A stretch of DNA of 64,000 bases from the IMG/VR virus record IMGVR_UViG_3300047564_002270, positions 1 to 64,000 of that record. The stretch is one strand, 5' to 3'. The position numbers and the translations under genes were made by a program. This DNA is from a virus. Shown here piece after piece: positions 30,671 to 38,680 of this stretch; position 1 is the first letter of the stretch; every line of letters starts with the position of its first letter. Below the pieces are notes generated by a model that worked only from the letters and a program-made list of their open reading frames with translations, was not told where the DNA came from and ran no database searches.

Positions 30671-31155
30671 AAGTTTATTTTTTCGGTAGAAAAACAATTG
30701 CTTCTGCTATTATTGCCTCTATAATAACATTTTTAATTGTTAATTTGCGTGGATGTGGAATTACTGAGAGTGATATTTACAAATGGTATTTTGAACTTCA
30801 GAAATTAATCAAATGGGATCTACCGAAAACGAATGATATAATAGAAGAAGTCAGAGATCAATTGAACCGTAAGATTATTCAAGATCCTGAACTTTTAGAT
30901 TATAGAGTCCGAAGAGATGTTGACGACGCAATTAATTCTTATGAACGATATGAGAATGAGAATAGAGTTATCTCAATGAAGAACCAGAATATACTTGAAG
31001 AAATTAATAAAGGTAAGTATAATGATCTTCAGAAAAAGATCTTAGAGAACGCAGTATATTATGAATTTGCTGATGGAACTATGGGTATTCGTGGTTCCTG
31101 GGTTCCTGCAGATCCTCGTGAAATTGATTTAGAGAAATTGAATGAAAGTAATTAA
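30667..31155 (+). CDS. hypothetical exported or lipoprotein-like protein
   Basis: N-terminal hydrophobic segment ending LRGC. Confidence 0.55.
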   Translation: MKVYFFGRKTIASAIIASIITFLIVNLRGCGITESDIYKWYFELQKLIKWDLPKTNDIIEEVRDQLNRKIIQDPELLDYRVRRDVDDAINSYERYENENRVISMKNQNILEEINKGKYNDLQKKILENAVYYEFADGTMGIRGSWVPADPREIDLEKLNESN

Positions 31156-31687
31156 AGAAAGTATAAGTGAAGATCTAGCTCATTACTGCCTAGAAGAAAT
31201 TAAAAGATTACAAGGATCTCCTGTATGGACATCTAGTTCTCTTTTTTGGTCTGAAGGTATCAAGAAATGTATTACTGGATCTTGTGTTGTTACGACCACT
31301 GATGAGTCAATTCGATATCAGATTTTAAGTCAGATTAGACATCATCTTCCAAAAGATGCAACTGATATCACAACAATGTTTTATATTTGGCAACCTCATT
31401 CTGGAATATCAAAGCACACGGATCATGGGTATAATTTTGCTGCTACGATTTATCTAAATCCCTCTTGGGATATTGATTGGGGAGGAACTTTCTTATACTA
31501 TAATAAGGGGATTGATTGGGAAGATCCTGATAATGGATATATGTATGATAATGAGAACTGGAAACTTGTAGTTCCAGAATGTAGAACTATGGTTCTAAAT
31601 ACTGATGAAACTTTACATATGGTCACTCCACTTTCTCCTATGAGTCCAGAACTGAGATACACCATACAGATCTGGGGACGCGCTTGA
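31142..31687 (+). CDS. 2OG-Fe(II) oxygenase (prolyl-hydroxylase-like)
   Basis: HTD, IYLN..WGG, HMVTP and RYTIQ. Confidence 0.85.
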   Translation: MKVIKESISEDLAHYCLEEIKRLQGSPVWTSSSLFWSEGIKKCITGSCVVTTTDESIRYQILSQIRHHLPKDATDITTMFYIWQPHSGISKHTDHGYNFAATIYLNPSWDIDWGGTFLYYNKGIDWEDPDNGYMYDNENWKLVVPECRTMVLNTDETLHMVTPLSPMSPELRYTIQIWGRA

Positions 31688-31712
31688 CAGGGGAACGAGG
31701 ATCCTATATAAT
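31684..31712 (+). promoter_or_regulatory. sigma70-type early promoter for the tRNA region
   Basis: TTGACA-17 nt-TATAAT. Confidence 0.8.
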
Positions 31713-31798
31713 AATCTCATAGGCAGCGGGGGTCCAAACCTTGCGTAAGACCTGCCCCTCCCATGCCTCTCAGCGATGCACAAACAGGGAGGACTCTT

Positions 31799-31875
31799 GT
31801 CTCGGTAGCTCAGATGGATAGAGCATCTGCCTTCTAAGCAGTTGGTCACAGGTTCGAGTCCTGTCCGAGACGCCA
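31799..31875 (+). tRNA. tRNA-Arg(UCU)
   Basis: cloverleaf; loop CTTCTAA; CCA encoded. Confidence 0.92.
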
Positions 31876-31948
31876 GGGGAATTAGCTCAGTTGGTAGAGC
31901 GCCTGCTTTGCAAGCAGGATGTCAGCGGTTCGAGTCCGCTATTCTCCA
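31876..31948 (+). tRNA. tRNA-Ala(UGC)
   Basis: cloverleaf; loop TTTGCAA; G3:U70 pair. Confidence 0.93.
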
Positions 31949-32001
31949 CTTGACTTTTTAATAAAAAAAGTCTTATAAATAAAATCACTTAGGTCGAAAC
32001 A

Positions 32002-32103
32002 ATGTCTTATCCAATTCCAACCAAACAGATTAGTAACCTTGATTGCCGCTATTGGCATATTGAGGGTGCTCCCCTGTTTGCGGATATGGAAAGACATATG
32101 TAA
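32002..32103 (+). CDS. 33-aa peptide MSYPIPTKQISNLDCRYWHIEGAPLFADMERHM
   Basis: late promoter TATAAATA upstream and a strong terminator downstream. Confidence 0.45.
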   Translation: MSYPIPTKQISNLDCRYWHIEGAPLFADMERHM

Positions 32104-32123
32104 GATGTTTAATCCATAAAAGC

Positions 32124-32163
32124 AAAAAAGGGGAGAGAAACCAAAAGTTTCCTCCCCTTTTTT
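32124..32163 (+). terminator. intrinsic terminator (potentially bidirectional)
   Basis: AAAAAAGGGGAG...CTCCCCTTTTTT. Confidence 0.75.
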
Positions 32164-32286
32164 GTTGCTTGTGACAGTTTCCTAAGTGTCCACCAACCTC
32201 CCCTCAGAGTTCAAATGGTGGTATTCTATACAAGTGGTTGAGAGACCACACCGAACATCGAAAACTGAATATTTACCACATTATAT

Positions 32287-32358
32287 GGGTCTGTAACTCA
32301 ACGGTAGAGTAACGGGCTTTTAACCTGGAAGTTGTGAGTTCGAATCTCACCAGACCCA
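32287..32358 (+). tRNA. tRNA-Lys(UUU)
   Basis: cloverleaf; loop CTTTTAA. Confidence 0.9.
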
Positions 32359-32362
32359 TCGT

Positions 32363-32444
32363 GGGAGGATTTCCGAGTGGCTAAAGGAACCTGACTGTAA
32401 ATCAGGCGGCTCTGCCTTCGCAGGTTCGAATCCTGCTCCTCCCA
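32363..32444 (+). tRNA. tRNA-Tyr(GUA)
   Basis: cloverleaf with variable arm; loop CTGTAAA. Confidence 0.92.
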
Positions 32445-32448
32445 CCTT

Positions 32449-32522
32449 GACCCATTAGTGTAGCGGTCTATCACGCCACCCTGTCACGGTGGAGATCACG
32501 GGTTCAAATCCCGTATGGGTCG
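32449..32522 (+). tRNA. tRNA-Asp(GUC)
   Basis: cloverleaf; loop CTGTCAC. Confidence 0.92.
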
Positions 32523-32663
32523 TTGAGAGTCAGTATTCTAACTCTCACGCATTCTTCAGAGGTTGCCAGTTTGCAGAAGAATGTTGTAGTAATAACTGGA
32601 ATTGGGGAGGGATTTCCGCCCGATGATTTTAAATCATCACTTTGCGGGATACCCCTCCCATCT

Positions 32664-32735
32664 GGTCCTATCGTCTAGTGGTGAGGACATCACTCTTTCA
32701 CAGTGAAGACACGGGTTCAAATCCCGTTAGGACTA
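32664..32735 (+). tRNA. tRNA-Glu(UUC)
   Basis: cloverleaf; loop CTTTCAC. Confidence 0.92.
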
Positions 32736-32738
32736 TAT

Positions 32739-32815
32739 CCAGATGTAGCTCAGTTTGGTAGAGCCCTCCGTTTGGGGCGGAGTTGTCGGAGGTTCAAATC
32801 CTTTCATCTGGACCA
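32739..32815 (+). tRNA. tRNA-Pro(UGG)
   Basis: cloverleaf; loop TTTGGGG; CCA encoded. Confidence 0.9.
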
Positions 32816-32888
32816 CGGGGAGTAGCTCAGTTGGTAGAGCACGGGATTGAAGATCCTGGTGTCGGCGGTTCAATTCCACCCTCTTCGA
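32816..32888 (+). tRNA. tRNA-Phe(GAA)
   Basis: cloverleaf; loop TTGAAGA. Confidence 0.88.
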
Positions 32889-32892
32889 CCTT

Positions 32893-32964
32893 GGAACCGT
32901 AGCTCAGTGGTAGAGCACTCGGCTGATAACCGAGCGGTCACAAGTTCAAATCTTGTCGGTTCCA
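32893..32964 (+). tRNA. tRNA-Ile(GAU)
   Basis: cloverleaf; loop CTGATAA. Confidence 0.92.
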
Positions 32965-32968
32965 CCTT

Positions 32969-33058
32969 GGAAGTGTGGCAGAGAGGTCTAATGCAGTGGA
33001 TTGCTAATCCGCCGATGTTCTTTAAGGGCATCCGTTGGTTCGAATCCAACCACTTCCG
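32969..33058 (+). tRNA. tRNA-Ser(GCU)
   Basis: long variable arm; loop TTGCTAA. Confidence 0.92.
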
Positions 33059-33143
33059 TTGGAAACATTCTAGAAAATAGAGCCGATATTTCCTCTATCG
33101 AGGTTTGAATGTTCTCCTTGACCGTTGCGGGTAAACGGTCTTT

Positions 33144-33215
33144 GGCAGTGTAGTTCAGTGGTAGAACAAGAGATTCATACCCTCTATGTCGGTAGTTCAA
33201 TTCTACCCACTGCCT
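33144..33215 (+). tRNA. tRNA-Met or Ile2 (CAU)
   Basis: cloverleaf; loop TTCATAC. Confidence 0.82.
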
Positions 33216-33216
33216 T

Positions 33217-33290
33217 GTGTCGTTAGCCTAGTGGTAAGGCAGTGGTTTGTGGAACCACCTAGATGGGTTCAATTCCCATACGACACCCCA
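33217..33290 (+). tRNA. tRNA-His(GUG)
   Basis: cloverleaf; loop TTGTGGA; C73 followed by CCA. Confidence 0.9.
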
Positions 33291-33336
33291 ATTCTACATT
33301 GTAGACCTTATAAATAAAATAAATAGGTCTACTAAA

Positions 33337-33771
33337 ATGAAGTGTAAGAATTGTGGAAAAGAGCATACTCCATCTAGAAATAGTATAGGAGTATATTGTG
33401 GAAACAAATGTCAACATGAGTTTCAAAAAAAACAAAGGATTTCTGATTGGTTATCTGGTGGGAAACTTCCAGGTAGGGGGGCATTAATTGAATACCTATC
33501 CGAAAATTTGGGTGGGTATAAATGTTCTACATGTGGTATTTCAGAATGGAATAATCTTCCTATTTCATTAGAAATAGACCACATAAATGGAAATCCACAT
33601 GATGATAGTTATGTAAATCTTCGTCTTATATGCCCCAATTGCCATTCCCAAACTCCTACTTTTAAAGGTAAAAACAAAGGGAATGGAAGAATTTCCTTAA
33701 TAGAAAGGAGGCGAGAAGATTATCATAGACAAAAACCGCCCGTTAAGCATTGTGGTGATGCAGCAGTTTAG
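33337..33771 (+). CDS. HNH homing endonuclease
   Basis: CKNC..CGNKC, CSTC, LEIDHINGN and NLRLICPNCHSQT. Confidence 0.9.
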   Translation: MKCKNCGKEHTPSRNSIGVYCGNKCQHEFQKKQRISDWLSGGKLPGRGALIEYLSENLGGYKCSTCGISEWNNLPISLEIDHINGNPHDDSYVNLRLICPNCHSQTPTFKGKNKGNGRISLIERRREDYHRQKPPVKHCGDAAV

Positions 33772-33808
33772 TAAACTGCAGAGAACAGTTCAATTCTGTT
33801 ATCGGGCT
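33738..33808 (+). tRNA. tRNA-Thr(AGU), atypical A34
   Basis: anticodon arm GCAGT-TTAGTAA-ACTGC; T arm AACAG-TTCAATT-CTGTT. Confidence 0.78.
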
Positions 33809-33880
33809 TCTGAGGTCGCCAAGCGGTAAGGCAGCGGGTTTTGGTCCCGCCATTCGTGGGTTCGAATCCTACCCTCAGAA
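33809..33880 (+). tRNA. tRNA-Gln(UUG)
   Basis: cloverleaf; loop TTTTGGT. Confidence 0.9.
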
Positions 33881-33883
33881 CCT

Positions 33884-33958
33884 GTTGGGTTGGTGCAATT
33901 GGTAGCATCTCGGTCTCCAAAACCGAAGATCAGAGTTCAAGTCTCTGGCCCTTCGCCA
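33884..33958 (+). tRNA. tRNA-Trp(CCA)
   Basis: loop CTCCAAA; CCA end; two U-U mismatches in the acceptor stem. Confidence 0.83.
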
Positions 33959-33960
33959 AT

Positions 33961-34032
33961 ACCCTGGTAACTCAGTGGAAGAGTGCTTCGCTACGAACGA
34001 AGAAGACGGGGGTTCAAATCCCTCTCAGGGTG
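33961..34032 (+). tRNA. tRNA-Arg(ACG)
   Basis: cloverleaf; loop CTACGAA. Confidence 0.9.
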
Positions 34033-34262
34033 CTTGACAAATTCTTAAGAGTTTGTTACTATATAAAGAGATAGAGGTTAAGTCCCTGTTACATCCTTAT
34101 GAGGTGTATCACACTTAATCCATCAAACGTAGGAAGTGCAATCCCTCTCGCTGGTTAATGCTAGATGAAGGATAAGGTGATTTTGTCCGCACATAGAAAT
34201 CCCTCCTACCACCACAAATATTGGTAGATACGCTTATAAATAATACTAGCAAGTTTACCATT

Positions 34263-34730
34263 ATGAGAAAAAGAGCAGATTTAGATAATAACAAAGAATA
34301 TATTATAAAATCTTTGTTGAGTGGAGAAAAATCTCCAACGGATGTCTGTGTTGAATTTAATTGCAAATACGATACTCTTCGTGCCAGAACAAAAGAGTGG
34401 ATTCCAAATTATAAACCAGACTATACTTCAAAGATAAGAACTTGTGGTGGACAAAATAAACATCTTTCTTTGGAACAATATTATCTACATAAAAATAAAA
34501 AATGTAAAAGGTCTATTTTACATAGATTACTTGTAGAAGAAAGGGGTGATTTTTGTTCTGAATGTGGAGTTTCTTCTACTTGGAATGGTAAAGATTTAAG
34601 ATTACAAGTTGACCATATAAATGGAGAATGTTATGATAATAGACCTTGTAATTTAAGATTACTTTGTCCAAACTGTCATTCGCAGACAGAAACATTCTCA
34701 TCAAAACAATCATTAGCGAGAGTGGTGTAA
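34263..34730 (+). CDS. HNH homing endonuclease
   Basis: CSECG, LQVDHINGE and NLRLLCPNCHSQT. Confidence 0.9.
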   Translation: MRKRADLDNNKEYIIKSLLSGEKSPTDVCVEFNCKYDTLRARTKEWIPNYKPDYTSKIRTCGGQNKHLSLEQYYLHKNKKCKRSILHRLLVEERGDFCSECGVSSTWNGKDLRLQVDHINGECYDNRPCNLRLLCPNCHSQTETFSSKQSLARVV

Positions 34731-34797
34731 TTGGTAGCCACGTTGCTCTTAGAAAGCAATGCTGAAAAGTGTAAGGGTTCGAGTCCCTTCTCTCGCA
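34716..34797 (+). tRNA. tRNA-Leu(UAG)
   Basis: variable arm; loop CTTAGAA. Confidence 0.9.
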
Positions 34798-34837
34798 CTT
34801 GACAATCAAACTAAAATAGTTTATGATTGTCTTATAA

Positions 34838-34909
34838 GCGGAGTTAGTTCAGCGGTAGAACGCTATCCTTCCAAGTTAGATGTCGTCGGTTCGATTCCGA
34901 TACTCCGCT
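34838..34909 (+). tRNA. tRNA-Gly(UCC)
   Basis: cloverleaf; loop CTTCCAA. Confidence 0.92.
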
Positions 34910-34929
34910 CTGAACCTTCGGGTTCTTAT

Positions 34930-35002
34930 TGCCCTATAGCTCAATTGGCAGAGCACGGAGCTGTTAACTCTGGGGTTCTTGGTTCGAGTCCAAGTGGGGC
35001 AG
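34930..35002 (+). tRNA. tRNA-Asn(GUU)
   Basis: cloverleaf; loop CTGTTAA. Confidence 0.92.
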
Positions 35003-35156
35003 TTGGAAGGTCTGGAAATTTTCGGATCTTCCTCTAAATCCTAAAGTCTAGAATTTAGGTCGGGGACTTGATCACCCCCGTTCGGATAGGTAAGGAAAGT
35101 AAAAGGAGCATGGGCACCCTCTTTGCGGGGGAGATACCGCACCTGCCTTATCCTTA

Positions 35157-35231
35157 ACCTCTGGTAGTCTATTGGTAAGGACAGGCGGACAACGCACTTG
35201 GAAACTAGGTTCGATTCCTAGACAGAGGTCA
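35157..35231 (+). ncRNA. tRNA-like RNA with non-canonical anticodon arm
   Basis: acceptor ACCTCTG/CAGAGGT, D arm GTC..GAC and T arm CTAGG-TTCGATT-CCTAG, but only GCG-GACAA-CGC as anticodon arm. Confidence 0.65.
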
Positions 35232-35232
35232 C

Positions 35233-35304
35233 GGGCGATTAACTCAGCGGTAGAGTGCCTCCTTTACACGGAGATGGTCACTGGTTCGAATCCAGTATCG
35301 CCCA
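35233..35304 (+). tRNA. tRNA-Val(UAC)
   Basis: cloverleaf; loop TTTACAC. Confidence 0.92.
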
Positions 35305-35313
35305 TAAGAAATG

Positions 35314-35352
35314 AAAAAACCTCAGGAGCGGCCACCCCTGAGGTTTTATTTT
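35314..35352. terminator. bidirectional intrinsic terminator
   Basis: AAAAAACCTCAGG...CCTGAGGTTTTATTTT. Confidence 0.8.
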
Positions 35353-35378
35353 GACCACACACGTCCCGTTGAGGACAT
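35314..35378 (-). ncRNA. candidate late small RNA complementary to the downstream leader
   Basis: minus-strand TATAAATA at 35389-35382, 5' hairpin GTCC-TCAACG-GGAC, GACGTGTGTG seed, terminator ending in T6. Confidence 0.5.
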
Positions 35379-35437
35379 ACGTATTTATACAATTTGAAAC
35401 AAATTAATCGTTTAAATTATTAAGGAGTTATAAAGTA

Positions 35438-35745
35438 TATAAATAAAATCAAGAGGAGCAATCCTCAGAGTTAGAGACAGCAGACGTATTACTCAGTGAT
35501 TCCTTTTTTGGTTCACTCATTAATGCTTCATTGGGTCTCCTAGATTTTCTTAGGAAAGTCTAAATCACACACGTCACGTATCTCTAACAGGAGATATGTT
35601 CAATCCCGAAGAGAAGTATTCCCAGAGGACTCGGCCAAAGTTCTCTGAGGCAAGGATTCTTCTGGCAATATGTCAGGGAAGGATTGTGCATATCTCTCCA
35701 AAATTACTTATATACACTTTCTTTCCCTTACGGAGAATAAAAAAA
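35438..35745 (+). promoter_or_regulatory. late promoter plus ~300-nt structured 5' leader
   Basis: TATAAATA at 35438-35445; nested stems GTTAGAGA/TCTCTAAC, GACGT/ACGTC, GAGATATG/CATATCTC and CAGAGGACT/AGTTCTCTG. Confidence 0.6.
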
Positions 35746-36648
35746 ATGGCTGATGTAACCGCTTACATGGGTGTAGACCCAGCACTTGCAGATATTCGCA
35801 GAGAAGGTTCTGTAGAGCGTGGAGAAATCCGCTACGATGTTGCTACTCGTGCTGGCGACATTCGTAGAGAAACCGCAGAAGGTATTAGCGAAGTTCGTTA
35901 TGACGTTGCTACCCGCACTGCTGACAACCGTTATGCTAATGCAATCGGTCAAAGCGACATTCGTAAAGAGCAAGCAATCGGTTTTGGTGATACCAGATAC
36001 GCTATTGCTGAGCACTCAGAAGCAACCAACCGTGACGTTTTAACAAGTGGTTTCAATACCAATGTTAAAGTAGACGAAGCTGCTGACAAAATTCAGCAAA
36101 GAGCTGCTGACTTCTACATTGCTGGTCAAGCAAGAGATTTTGATAACTCCCGTGATCTTGCTGCTCTGAAGGCATTCACAGATATGTCTTCTCAAAAACT
36201 CAGCAGTGAGATCCTTCTTGCTACTGAGAAGGCTGCTACTGCTAATGCTCTTGCGTCTGAAAAAGTTGCTGCTGCTGTAGCACTTGAGTCAGCAAGATTA
36301 GGCACTGCTGTAGCACTGGGTCAGTCACAAATCAGCAAAGAAGTTGCTGAAAGTAAGTATGACCTCAGTAAGCAAATGGCTTATGAGAATGAGAAGACCC
36401 GTGACCTCATCAACGACCTCAAGAACTCTGACCTTAACCGTCAGCTCATTGAGCGTAATAGTGATATTAACTATTATCGCCAAGATTGCAATCGTTGGGA
36501 AGGTCTGTATGGCAATGGCCAGTTTGCTCAACTTGCTTCACAAATCAATGCTCTGCAGTCAAACTTAGCAGAAACTCGCCAGGGTCTCTATAACTTTGGA
36601 ACCATGGCTGGTGTAGGTCAATCCTCAAACCAAAATCAGGTTCGCTGA
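35746..36648 (+). CDS. 300-aa hendecad-repeat coiled-coil protein
   Basis: GGAG RBS before ATG 35746; 11-residue repeats DIRRE../EIRYD.. Confidence 0.8.
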   Translation: MADVTAYMGVDPALADIRREGSVERGEIRYDVATRAGDIRRETAEGISEVRYDVATRTADNRYANAIGQSDIRKEQAIGFGDTRYAIAEHSEATNRDVLTSGFNTNVKVDEAADKIQQRAADFYIAGQARDFDNSRDLAALKAFTDMSSQKLSSEILLATEKAATANALASEKVAAAVALESARLGTAVALGQSQISKEVAESKYDLSKQMAYENEKTRDLINDLKNSDLNRQLIERNSDINYYRQDCNRWEGLYGNGQFAQLASQINALQSNLAETRQGLYNFGTMAGVGQSSNQNQVR

Positions 36649-36707
36649 TTATTCATAGTTAAACTTGGGAGGGAAATATTCCCTCCCTTATTACAGGAGA
36701 ATTAACT

Positions 36708-37313
36708 ATGTCTATGGATGATTATGATAGACAACTTATAGAGCTAAATGCTCTTCTTACTGCTGCCAGAAGTCACGGAACCCAAGAGCAGGTGGATTTT
36801 GCTTTGCAAAATATTCAAAAGGCCCTGGGAAATGAGACTCCAAACGGTGGAACAAACATTTCTAATATTACTGTAAATGTCGAAGATGATGATTGCGATG
36901 ATGTGTGCCCACCTGGTCCTCCTGGGCCACCTGGGCCTCCTGGTCCTCCAGGTGAACCAGGACCTCCCGGTCCTCCAGGTGAGCAGGGACCTCCTGGTCC
37001 TCAAGGACCGATAGGAATTTGCAGTTGTAAATGCTCCACACGCCTTGTAACTACCAATTACACGGCAACCTGTGATGATTACTATATTGGAGTTAAATCT
37101 GATGGTCCAGTGACGATTTCACTGCCAGAAGAATGTACCGATTGCTGCGAATTAATTATCAAAGCAGAAATGGGACCTCCTCTTGGAAATAGGAAAGTTA
37201 CTGTTCAGGCAACAGGTGCCAGTTATATTGATGGCACAGACAAATATGTTATAGAAGTCCCGTATCAATCTGTGAATATTATTTGTAGAGATGGAGATTG
37301 GCACATCATCTAA
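36708..37313 (+). CDS. Cys-rich collagen-like protein
   Basis: 12 G-X-Y triplets (7 GPP) flanked by CDDVC and CSCKC; C-terminal domain shared with the next gene. Confidence 0.85.
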
Positions 37314-37322
37314 GGAGAAAAA

Positions 37323-37934
37323 ATGGCTTACTTAGCACAACCTACCTCAAAGACAGAATATGGTGTTGTGGGTGTTGGTAGTTTTATCAATGTTCTTGAT
37401 GGGTTTATTTCTTTAGAACAAGATGTATCACCTACTAGTGTTGTATCTTTTTCTCAGGTTAATGTTGGAAATAAAGATGTAGTTACTTCAGTAAATCCAG
37501 TTGCTGGAGATGGCATCTCAATTACCGATTTAGTTTCGATAGGAAACACAGTTGGATTTGCGGTTTCAAATATAGGTGTTCTATCTTTATCTGCCGGTTC
37601 TGGAATTTCAATTTCCAATACCACCGGAAATATTACAATCTCGGCATCTGGTGCAGACCTGATTGCTACGATTGGAGTTACTGGTGCTTATACTGCAACT
37701 GCAAGTGATGAATATATTGGCGTTTTCAGTGCCTCTGCAGTCACAATTACTCTTCCCATTGGAATTACTGGAAGAGTTTATACAATTAAAGATGAATATG
37801 GTCAGGGATCTGGAAAGATTACAATTAAACCTTCTGGAGCAGAAAAGGTTGATAATTCAAATACTTATGTAATATCGGTGCCGTATCAATCGGTATCGGT
37901 GGTATTTCGTGGCGGACAATGGAGAATTATTTAA
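37323..37934 (+). CDS. fibre-like structural protein, paralogous C-terminal domain to 36708
   Basis: AGDGISI/AGSGISI repeats; YTAT..YIGV..TLP..IK.E..VPYQSV..W.II. Confidence 0.75.
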   Translation: MAYLAQPTSKTEYGVVGVGSFINVLDGFISLEQDVSPTSVVSFSQVNVGNKDVVTSVNPVAGDGISITDLVSIGNTVGFAVSNIGVLSLSAGSGISISNTTGNITISASGADLIATIGVTGAYTATASDEYIGVFSASAVTITLPIGITGRVYTIKDEYGQGSGKITIKPSGAEKVDNSNTYVISVPYQSVSVVFRGGQWRII

Positions 37935-38680
37935 ATCTAAACTTTAAAGTCAGAAAATCACCTTCGGAAGAAAGTGATCTAATCTATAAGAGCGATAATA
38001 CAAAATGTATTCAAGAAATCGCTGACCTAAGACAGTGGGATACTCTTGTAGAAAATCAGGGAACCTTAAGTGCTTGTAGTGGTTCTGCCATTACAAGTGC
38101 CTATGAACTGATGGTAAAGCAATTGTATCCAGAACAGTCTGTGGAATTAAGTGATTTGTTTGTTTATTACAATGCTCGCTTGAATGAAGGAACAGTCAAT
38201 CGGGATATTGGAATTTACGTTAAGACTGGTATGAGTGTTCTAAAAGAATATGGTGTTTGCTCTGAAGATCTATGGCCTTATGATTTAGAAATGTGGGATG
38301 ATAAACCTCCCAATATTGCTTATGATGATGCTGAAAAAAGAAAAATTTTACAGTATCAAAAAGTAACCAGCACATATTATCTCACTGAAGTGTTGAGTGA
38401 CAACAAACCAGTTGTTTTCGGTATGGAAATATATGATAGTTTTATGGAATTAGATAACCGTATTTCGACTGTGCCATTCCCTTCACGTAAGGAAAAAAGT
38501 CAAGGTGGACACGCAATGTGTATGGTTGGTTACGACCTAGAAAAAAGACTTTTTCTTGCGAAGAATAGTTTTGGAACCAATTGGGGAATGGAAGGGTATT
38601 GTTGGGTCCCTTTTGATTACCTTAAACAGGAAGGATACGATGCGTGGATATTTGATATTCCACCCCAAGTAGGAACCTAA
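37919..38680 (+). CDS. papain-like (C1 family) cysteine protease
   Basis: NQGTLSAC (Gln, Cys), GGHAMCMVGY (His), KNSFGTNWG (Asn). Confidence 0.9.
   Translation: MENYLNLNFKVRKSPSEESDLIYKSDNTKCIQEIADLRQWDTLVENQGTLSACSGSAITSAYELMVKQLYPEQSVELSDLFVYYNARLNEGTVNRDIGIYVKTGMSVLKEYGVCSEDLWPYDLEMWDDKPPNIAYDDAEKRKILQYQKVTSTYYLTEVLSDNKPVVFGMEIYDSFMELDNRISTVPFPSRKEKSQGGHAMCMVGYDLEKRLFLAKNSFGTNWGMEGYCWVPFDYLKQEGYDAWIFDIPPQVGT

Follow-up and report, generated by a model that had tools for sequence, protein, structure and literature searches.

Several small RNA (sRNA) genes of Escherichia coli lie back-to-back with the promoter of their target without overlapping it, as described for IstR-1/tisB, OhsC/shoB, OrzO/zorO and AgrB/dinQ. 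In these divergent type I pairs the short complementarity comes from a direct repeat, and the pairing site is found in a long structured 5' untranslated region (UTR). Although T4-like phages are textbook systems, no trans-acting regulatory sRNA with a phage target has, to our knowledge, been established in them. For cyanophages, reviews list CfrI and Rfam motifs in S-CREM1, and CfrI of S-PM2 is the only experimentally confirmed non-coding RNA of a T4-like cyanophage given in them (PMC2984593, PMC12197685). Here we analysed the first 64 kb (64,000 nt, in the following called the window) of a 159-kb viral contig which is 76% complete (IMG/VR record IMGVR_UViG_3300047564_002270). Judged from its sequence, this T4-like cyanophage very probably encodes a small RNA of about 63 nt, divergent from a late promoter. 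We further consider it likely that this sRNA exists and pairs with the structured leader of the late gene cassette on the other side of the promoters. The locus has the arrangement of the E. coli pairs, with back-to-back and non-overlapping genes, a short complementarity derived from a direct repeat and a site in a long structured 5' UTR.

The candidate sRNA gene is located at 35314-35376 on the minus strand and was recognized by its fold and its conservation. The transcript start was set 5 nt past the promoter box (35376) and the end after the U6 run (35314). A minus transcript of about 65 nt with a 5' hairpin and a U6 terminator had been proposed in an earlier sequence-only reading of the window, which agrees well with the predicted 63 nt (57-68 nt in relatives). 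In its predicted fold (-27.2 kcal/mol) the 63-nt RNA has a hairpin at the 5' end and a terminator of 14 bp, with an open stretch between them. The 5' hairpin starts at the predicted +1 and comprises nt 1-14 of the sRNA (35363-35376, minus strand); its GUCC/GGAC stem is present in 5/5 copies and its loops vary (CAAC, UUCG, UAUC). It is followed by an exposed 8-mer seed (nt 15-22; 35355-35362, minus strand) that is invariant in the five copies and costs 0.1-2.5 kcal/mol to open. The seed is part of an invariant 14-nt block (35355-35368), whereas the spacer, the loops and the terminator vary. An A/U-rich spacer of variable sequence leads to the terminator hairpin and its U6 (35316-35347, minus strand). 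The helix of the terminator is 100% paired in five sequences and shows compensatory change at four of eight pairs, its stem sequences differ among the copies, and a minus-strand U-run of 6-9 nt follows in all of them.

Five distinct copies of this module were found in the window and its metagenomic relatives (window, L016, L244, L003 and L059), with an identical order of box, 5-6 nt, hairpin, seed, spacer, terminator and U6-9. The module abuts the leader promoter in every copy. At least three different neighbours are found upstream of it, namely a tRNA-Val in the window and in L016, a protein gene with its stop codon inside the hairpin in L003 and yet other sequences in L244 and L059. In a scan of viral contigs with a 14-mer, 60 matches were obtained, all of them by chance except those in L059, which was new, and in two contigs already known. 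With a covariance model of the five copies, no diverged sRNA homologues were detected in 51 sources. Moreover, neither the sRNA nor the leader matched an Rfam family (cmscan, E<=1, both strands of 31000-37000; none between 35305 and 35760), and this includes Yfr1, Yfr2 and the known riboswitches. The gene appears to encode a trans-acting base-pairing sRNA that belongs to no described RNA family: it has its own promoter box, an intrinsic terminator on the same strand, a conserved and accessible seed and a conserved and accessible target. A PeSL-like repeat element was rejected since the module occurs as a single copy in the contig. A minus-strand open reading frame (ORF) of 42 aa (35264-35392) was rejected as well, since it spans the promoter box and the length of the spacer varies.

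Several strand-specific signs favour transcription from the minus strand. The covariance model R1, built from the five copies and scored on both strands, gave 69-86 bits on the minus strand compared with at most 26 bits on the plus strand. Read on the plus strand, three G.U cells of the terminator helix turn into C/A mismatches. A C(UUCG)G sequence, present in two copies, is a stable tetraloop on the minus strand only, and L003, L244 and L059 have a poor T-tract on the plus strand. A plus-strand reading of the module was rejected on these grounds. In the window the same hairpin also terminates the plus-strand tRNA array.

The late-promoter box of the sRNA, TATAAATA, lies at 35382-35389 on the minus strand. 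Its ATAAATA core is invariant in 5/5 relatives and its first base is T or C across the five copies, which fits the NATAAATA consensus of cyanomyoviruses. NATAAATA is the accepted late promoter of cyanomyoviruses, and g55, g33 and g45 are present in all of these phages (PMC2984593). The distance from the minus box to the first base of the 5' hairpin is 5-6 nt in 5/5 copies, with a match to the consensus. The late promoter of the cassette leader is located at 35438-35445 on the plus strand, and a TATAAATA, CATAAATA or ACTAAATA box is found at the same place in all related loci. We could confirm the back-to-back late promoters noticed before (minus 35389-35382, plus 35438-35445), which are separated by 48 nt between the boxes in the window; across the copies the two late promoters are 31-48 nt apart. 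The phage is, as far as its genes tell, a T4-like cyanomyovirus, because the window codes for T4-type gp41 helicase, gp45 clamp, clamp loader, RegA and UvsX, and for a T4-type gp43 with 78% identity to Synechococcus phages S-SM2 and SynMITS9220M01. A T4-type late promoter has a -10 box of this kind that is used by gp55/gp33 with the gp45 clamp; the gp45 clamp and the clamp loader are encoded in the window of this incomplete contig. In the 159-kb contig TATAAATA is found at 13 plus-strand but two minus-strand sites, and NATAAATA at 40 compared with seven; this bias fits selection against antisense late promoters. Taken alone, a single minus-strand TATAAATA is within chance expectation, but the conserved copy ahead of the sRNA is notable because the box is so strongly strand-biased in the contig. 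Nine of the 13 plus-strand TATAAATA sites lie 16-102 nt ahead of an ATG ORF. The plus box of the cassette, by contrast, is about 300 nt away from the start codon. The other minus-strand TATAAATA, at 75457, is located 86 nt ahead of a minus-strand ATG ORF.

The complementarity to the leader had first been seen as a repeat. As stated in the sequence-only reading, a 10-mer is present at 35356-35365 and again at 35566-35575; no further exact copy exists in the window, and even the 9-mer core is restricted to these two places in the whole contig. Through this repeat the sRNA can form a 16-nt pairing with the leader, for which a hand check gave 14 Watson-Crick pairs, one G.U pair and one A/G mismatch, in line with the 15/16 positions and the one G-U claimed before. 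By itself the repeat is unremarkable, as 17 of 100 shuffles gave at least three one-mismatch matches, and the finding exceeds chance because it is conserved in related loci. Interaction energies were calculated from seed-restricted duplexes and opening energies, since folding of full-length duplexes gave meaningless long looped duplexes. In the five cognate pairs the net interaction energy ranged from -7.8 to -13.9 kcal/mol, and both partners were cheap to open. Among 10,625 plus-strand windows of the contig, the leader site was the second-best non-self site for sRNA nt 7-28 (-23.5 kcal/mol compared with a mean of -9.9 and a standard deviation of 3.0; z about -4.5). The other top sites lie within coding sequence and are rich in G.U pairs. 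The invariant seed matches the leader site perfectly in L016, L244 and L003. The duplex comprises 10-16 bp in four of the five copies, and L059 forms a near-continuous 26-nt duplex.

The seed target is located at 35564-35579 on the plus strand, with its core at 35566-35575. It lies shortly ahead of the 3' strand of leader helix P2 (35582-35587), about 116 nt from the 5' end of the leader and about 170 nt ahead of the start codon. It is part of an optional insertion of about 50-60 nt in the P2 domain (35530-35579, plus strand), which consists of an extra hairpin and a linker that holds the target. The insertion is missing in 18 of 26 distinct leaders, where P2a runs directly to the P2 3' strand; five leaders contain the insertion with the target core and three (L026, L027 and L223) contain it with other sequence. 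A CACACGU core is kept in 5/5 sRNA-bearing leaders inside an otherwise unalignable insertion, and it persists while the insertion hairpin is wholly different among the window, L003 and L059. The CACACA part of the target is predicted to be unpaired with a probability of 0.9-1.0 in the window, L244 and L003. The target core is absent from the other 21 distinct leaders, which also lack the sRNA gene. Two of them, L004 and L008, share the upstream gene of L003 and have neither the leader insertion nor the module, and therefore the module travels with the target-bearing leader. Conservation of the repeat in homologous loci had been named as a check of the earlier proposal, a divergent late sRNA encoded by the phage with a seed complementary to the leader. 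This proposal was supported, as the promoter box with its distance to the 5' hairpin, the seed block, the terminator and the target core are kept in the five diverged relatives.

In a tree of the leader core from which the insertion had been removed, the five carriers form one clade with a support of 0.89 and long internal branches, and their leader cores differ by up to about 0.7 substitutions per site. This argues for a sRNA/target pair that arose once and was kept through much divergence by selection, as far as can be judged from sequence conservation. L026, L027 and L223 are placed in a distant clade of this tree. Their insertion hairpin closely resembles that of L003 and L244 (columns 85-140 of alignment A3) despite the distant leader cores, which suggests that the insertion moved between lineages by recombination. 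In the L027/L223 lineage a gene for an HNH endonuclease occupies the position of the sRNA gene, in divergent orientation and with its own late box; in L027 (2217-2585, minus strand) it codes for 122 aa and has a minus-strand TATAAATA about 25 nt upstream.

The leader itself (35451-35745, plus strand) is an RNA of conserved structure with the helices P1, P2, P2a, P3, P4 and P5 and a hairpin at the Shine-Dalgarno (SD) sequence. It was defined from 26 distinct sequences that span the late box to the start codon and stem without exception from metagenomic contigs or contigs of uncultured viruses. They were collected by way of the first cassette protein, by scanning viral contigs with two DNA patterns and by a single scan of metagenomes; a loose leader pattern gave mostly noise and a tighter one was used instead. 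RNAalifold and pair counting on alignment A3 (25 sequences) yielded seven helices. In this alignment 96.9% of the cells were paired and 17 pairs showed changes on both sides, a covariation reached by none of 500 shuffles, and slid controls gave 2-7. The first of them, P1, forms a 5' hairpin at +1; P2 joins 35471-35476 to 35582-35587 over a long range, and the SD is covered by a weak hairpin. Nucleotide conservation sets in precisely with the plus late box and continues up to the start codon, whereas the first cassette protein is merely 60-70% identical (approximately) across loci. The leader precedes the same repeat-protein gene in every locus. We regard it as a candidate for a new class of cis-regulatory RNA, based on covariation and synteny. 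A conserved small ORF in the leader was not found in the related loci, where the ATG at 35596 is not kept and frame-breaking indels follow. Besides, the P4/P5 domain contains a highly conserved, purine-rich internal loop. Inside P2a, columns 40 and 82 of A3 (35485 and 35527) appear to covary: most sequences have C/C or U/U there, the window, L016, L008 and L246 being exceptions. This hints at a conserved non-canonical pair of pyrimidines.

How pairing could act on this leader was addressed by folding. The sequence-only reading had placed the target over the ACGUC strand of a GACGU/ACGUC stem and had suggested that the sRNA refolds the leader. In the minimum-energy fold of the window leader, the ACGUC of the target (35571-35575) indeed pairs with GACGU (35483-35487) of the P2a 5' strand and displaces P2a/P3. 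This stem is specific to the window, however; the conserved consensus fold lacks it, and the two compete. When the target was masked, the predicted probability of P2a/P3 increased from 0.37 to 0.98 in the window, and it reached 0.98 in L016 (from 0.76) and L003 (from 0.64) as well. The idea of refolding is only weakly borne out, as masking raises P2a/P3 in three of five leaders but the stem that it started from is peculiar to the window. Without the sRNA gene, nearly all of 20 leaders are predicted to form the conserved helices with probabilities of about 0.95-1.0; the predicted values are clearly lower in the five leaders that come with the sRNA.

From these results we propose the following course of events. 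Late in infection, the late-transcription machinery of the phage would start at the minus box as well as at the plus box 48 nt away. The minus transcript of about 63 nt would begin with a protective hairpin at +1 and expose an 8-nt seed, which an A/U-rich spacer separates from the intrinsic terminator. Its seed would pair with the single-stranded linker of the optional leader insertion, and the pairing could reach into the 5' hairpin of the sRNA up to 15 of 16 positions. The insertion would make the conserved leader fold less secure, and an occupied linker could no longer mispair with the P2a 5' strand, so that the P2a/P3 fold would be locked. The sRNA would then license or tune expression of the cassette rather than block the ribosome site directly. 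The architecture of the gene, its conservation, its complementarity to the leader and the accessibility of seed and target were established in silico, and from them we infer transcription of the RNA, its pairing in vivo and the direction of its effect. The whole of this explanation, comprising the sRNA gene, the pairing with the leader and the locking of the fold, is our preferred one and is held tentatively, at somewhat less than an even chance. Within the likelihood given to an sRNA that exists and pairs, the activating, fold-locking direction is possible according to the folding model yet short of probable, and we give almost the same weight to repression or processing after the manner of IstR-1.

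Several points weigh against this explanation. The carriers are monophyletic, so that the co-occurrence of gene and target counts as a single origin. Compensatory change between seed and target, which had been suggested as a check, was not found in the five copies; the seed is invariant, and the result is uninformative rather than contrary. Variants of the target (U or a mismatch at one position) occur without a matching change of the seed, and the target of L059 has a U/U mismatch inside the seed match. Seed/target covariation was also sought in L026, L027 and L223 and not found, L026 sharing no more than an 8-mer, at chance level. An energy of about -10 kcal/mol is in itself nothing unusual, and a GU-rich seed meets many sites once G.U pairs are allowed. 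On the side of the leader, masking is without effect in L244, which is already folded, and L059 is poorly predicted. The predicted accessibility of the SD is unchanged when the target is masked, and the trend towards a locked fold is a thermodynamic prediction on related sequences. A role in timing, as proposed in the sequence-only reading, is not evident because both promoters are late and both RNAs should appear together. Moreover, the locus was not found in isolated phages, as near and distant blastn searches with it gave only tRNA matches or nothing relevant. A tblastn search with the first cassette protein against isolated phages likewise gave nothing relevant.

The alternative that survives best retains the sRNA and its pairing and gives them a negative or processing role. 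The duplex could then create a nuclease site, block a standby or loading region of the ribosome or disable the leader, and the sRNA could set a threshold that the cassette mRNA must exceed, as IstR-1 does on the tisB leader. The layout invites this comparison, as divergent type I antitoxin sRNAs also have back-to-back promoters, no overlap and a short complementarity far 5' of the SD. In addition, the near-continuous 26-nt duplex of L059 is long enough for a double-strand nuclease, and leaders without the insertion work without the sRNA, so the add-on could equally be a brake. The remaining four copies, however, form a duplex of just 10-16 bp, no small toxin-like ORF is conserved in the leader, and masking the site favours the conserved fold in three of five leaders. 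We therefore judge this alternative, taken as a complete account, to be rather unlikely. Two related classifications were rejected outright. A cis-antisense RNA of the CfrI, OOP or sar type is incompatible with a sRNA gene (35314-35376) that lies wholly upstream of the leader start (35451). A type I toxin-antitoxin system does not fit either, since the leader contains no conserved toxin ORF and the first gene codes for a 300-aa repeat protein.

Next, the sRNA could be real and have its main targets elsewhere, in host mRNAs or sRNAs or in other phage genes, the leader site being a sponge, a decoy or simply a relic of the duplication that gave rise to the sRNA gene. More than one target is usual for seeds of 8 nt. 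In its build, with two stem-loops on either side of an ultraconserved open motif, the sRNA mirrors the host RNA Yfr1, and the 8-mer CCUCACAC of the open Yfr1 motif recurs unchanged in the leader site of L059 (PMC2190773, PMC6778093). Nevertheless, the seed is perfect for the leader form of L016, L244 and L003, whereas a hand check of the Yfr1 motif gave a U/U mismatch and 5+2 pairs. Host Yfr1 was set aside as a target, since just these 5+2 pairs form, and a link of the phage sRNA to the Yfr1/Yfr2 network of the host is possible but weak. Furthermore, the gene is always found beside the leader and is absent wherever the leader has no site, and the remaining high-ranking sites of the contig fall within coding regions and depend on G.U pairs. 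Main targets outside the leader are improbable in our opinion.

It is even less probable that the whole arrangement is an inherited coincidence, in which one local duplication took place in the ancestor of the clade and persisted without function next to a fortuitous box and hairpins. The five carriers do form one clade, seed and target do not covary, and in a single sequence each feature alone is near chance. This view has difficulties with the box, the 14-nt block and the target core, all of which remained intact over up to about 0.7 substitutions per site in the leader core, while loops, spacer, terminator stems and the rest of the insertion changed or became unalignable and the stems changed in a compensatory manner. 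Minus-strand TATAAATA is, besides, otherwise depleted in the contig. Finally, the locus might lack a regulatory RNA altogether. The motif copies would then be sites of a phage or host DNA-binding protein flanking the late promoter, and the hairpin would be a bidirectional terminator insulating the cassette from upstream transcription. This would suit the 9-10-bp direct repeat, whose copies lie about 80 bp ahead of the plus start site and 125 bp past it, and a window hairpin that ends the tRNA array with a plus-strand T-tract. We hold this view to be very improbable. It leaves unexplained why the minus promoter box is conserved at a constant distance, why a 5' hairpin is kept while its loops vary, why G.U pairs occur where the plus strand would have mismatches and why the plus T-tracts of L003, L244 and L059 are poor; besides, we know of no upstream operator sites at T4-type late promoters.

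With respect to the genomic setting, nearly all genes of the contig are on the plus strand. A tRNA array of 21 genes (31799-35304, plus strand) is located upstream of the sRNA locus. Directly 5' of its first tRNA we found the Rfam abiF RNA motif RF03085 (31757-31793, plus strand; 46.8 bits, gathering score 37), and in the Synechococcus phage S-CREM1 an abiF motif is likewise annotated beside tRNAs. Two ORFs for HNH endonucleases lie within the array (33247-33771 and 34221-34730, plus strand), and both have a plus-strand TATAAATA 20 nt ahead of an internal ATG. The late cassette downstream of the leader is encoded on the plus strand and starts with the gene for the 300-aa repeat/coiled-coil protein (35746-36648), whose start codon and SD are kept in all loci. 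It is followed by genes for a collagen-like protein (36708-37313), a fibre-like paralogue and a papain-family protease (37919-38680). The true start of the first cassette gene is 35746 and not the ATG at 35596; a 350-aa ORF from 35596 was rejected since its start ATG is ACG in L003 and indels of 1-2 nt follow downstream. In L059 (7318-7960) the first cassette gene is shorter, with 213 codons and one in-frame stop at codon 16, and the sRNA gene and the leader are intact upstream of it. This stop could be a sequencing error, a nonsense mutation or a case of recoding.

A more far-reaching reading combines the two RNAs into one device. The leader, which may sense a ligand or a protein, would control a cassette of virion-surface type, and in the one clade where it acquired the insertion its correct fold would have come to depend on the co-transcribed late sRNA as a folding cofactor acting in trans. 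We consider this device unlikely and mention it as a speculation; if it were real, the T4 superfamily would have its first sRNA that acts in trans on a defined phage target, and one that licenses a cis-regulatory RNA without touching the ribosome site. The preferred explanation, a sRNA that pairs with the leader and locks its fold, would for its part mean post-transcriptional control by RNA-RNA pairing within the late programme of abundant aquatic cyanophages, and would offer a model for the joint origin of a sRNA gene and its target site by local duplication. The locus is a compact and testable sRNA/target pair under back-to-back late promoters, natural versions of the same leader with and without it exist in related phages, and a new, strongly covarying leader RNA of about 240-300 nt comes with the finding.

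Among other described RNAs, CfrI is a cis-antisense RNA of about 225 nt over psbA and a homing endonuclease gene, whereas the sRNA reported here has no overlap with its target and a short seed match, and the two share no sequence relation. Yfr1 is similar in its architecture, as both RNAs measure 54-69 nt and have two stem-loops flanking an ultraconserved single-stranded motif (PMC2190773, PMC6778093). The sRNA in our study, however, is encoded by a phage, and its open motif is GU-rich and roughly complements the 3' half of the motif in Yfr1; between the phage seed and the Yfr1 motif there is one mismatch. The c4 RNA of P1/P7 and the CI RNA of P4 are also small phage RNAs that use short complementary boxes in the leader of their own operon. 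These RNAs are processed from the transcript that they regulate and serve lysogenic immunity, whereas here a separate divergent late promoter is found in a lytic T4-like phage. With regard to its possible action, the sRNA would be closest to the sRNAs that remodel the rpoS leader, by analogy with DsrA, RprA and ArcZ, which pair in trans far upstream in a folded leader and alter its fold, as the fold-locking explanation assumes. The sRNAs acting on rpoS free the ribosome site directly, however, while the predicted SD accessibility here is unaffected by masking. With regard to its layout, the locus most closely resembles the divergent type I antitoxin sRNAs of the IstR-1/tisB type. This resemblance is one of arrangement: the E. 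coli pairs have a small membrane toxin downstream and a complementarity of 18-21 nt, whereas the cyanophage locus has a 300-aa repeat protein heading a structural-looking cassette, a complementarity of 10-16 nt and phage late promoters.

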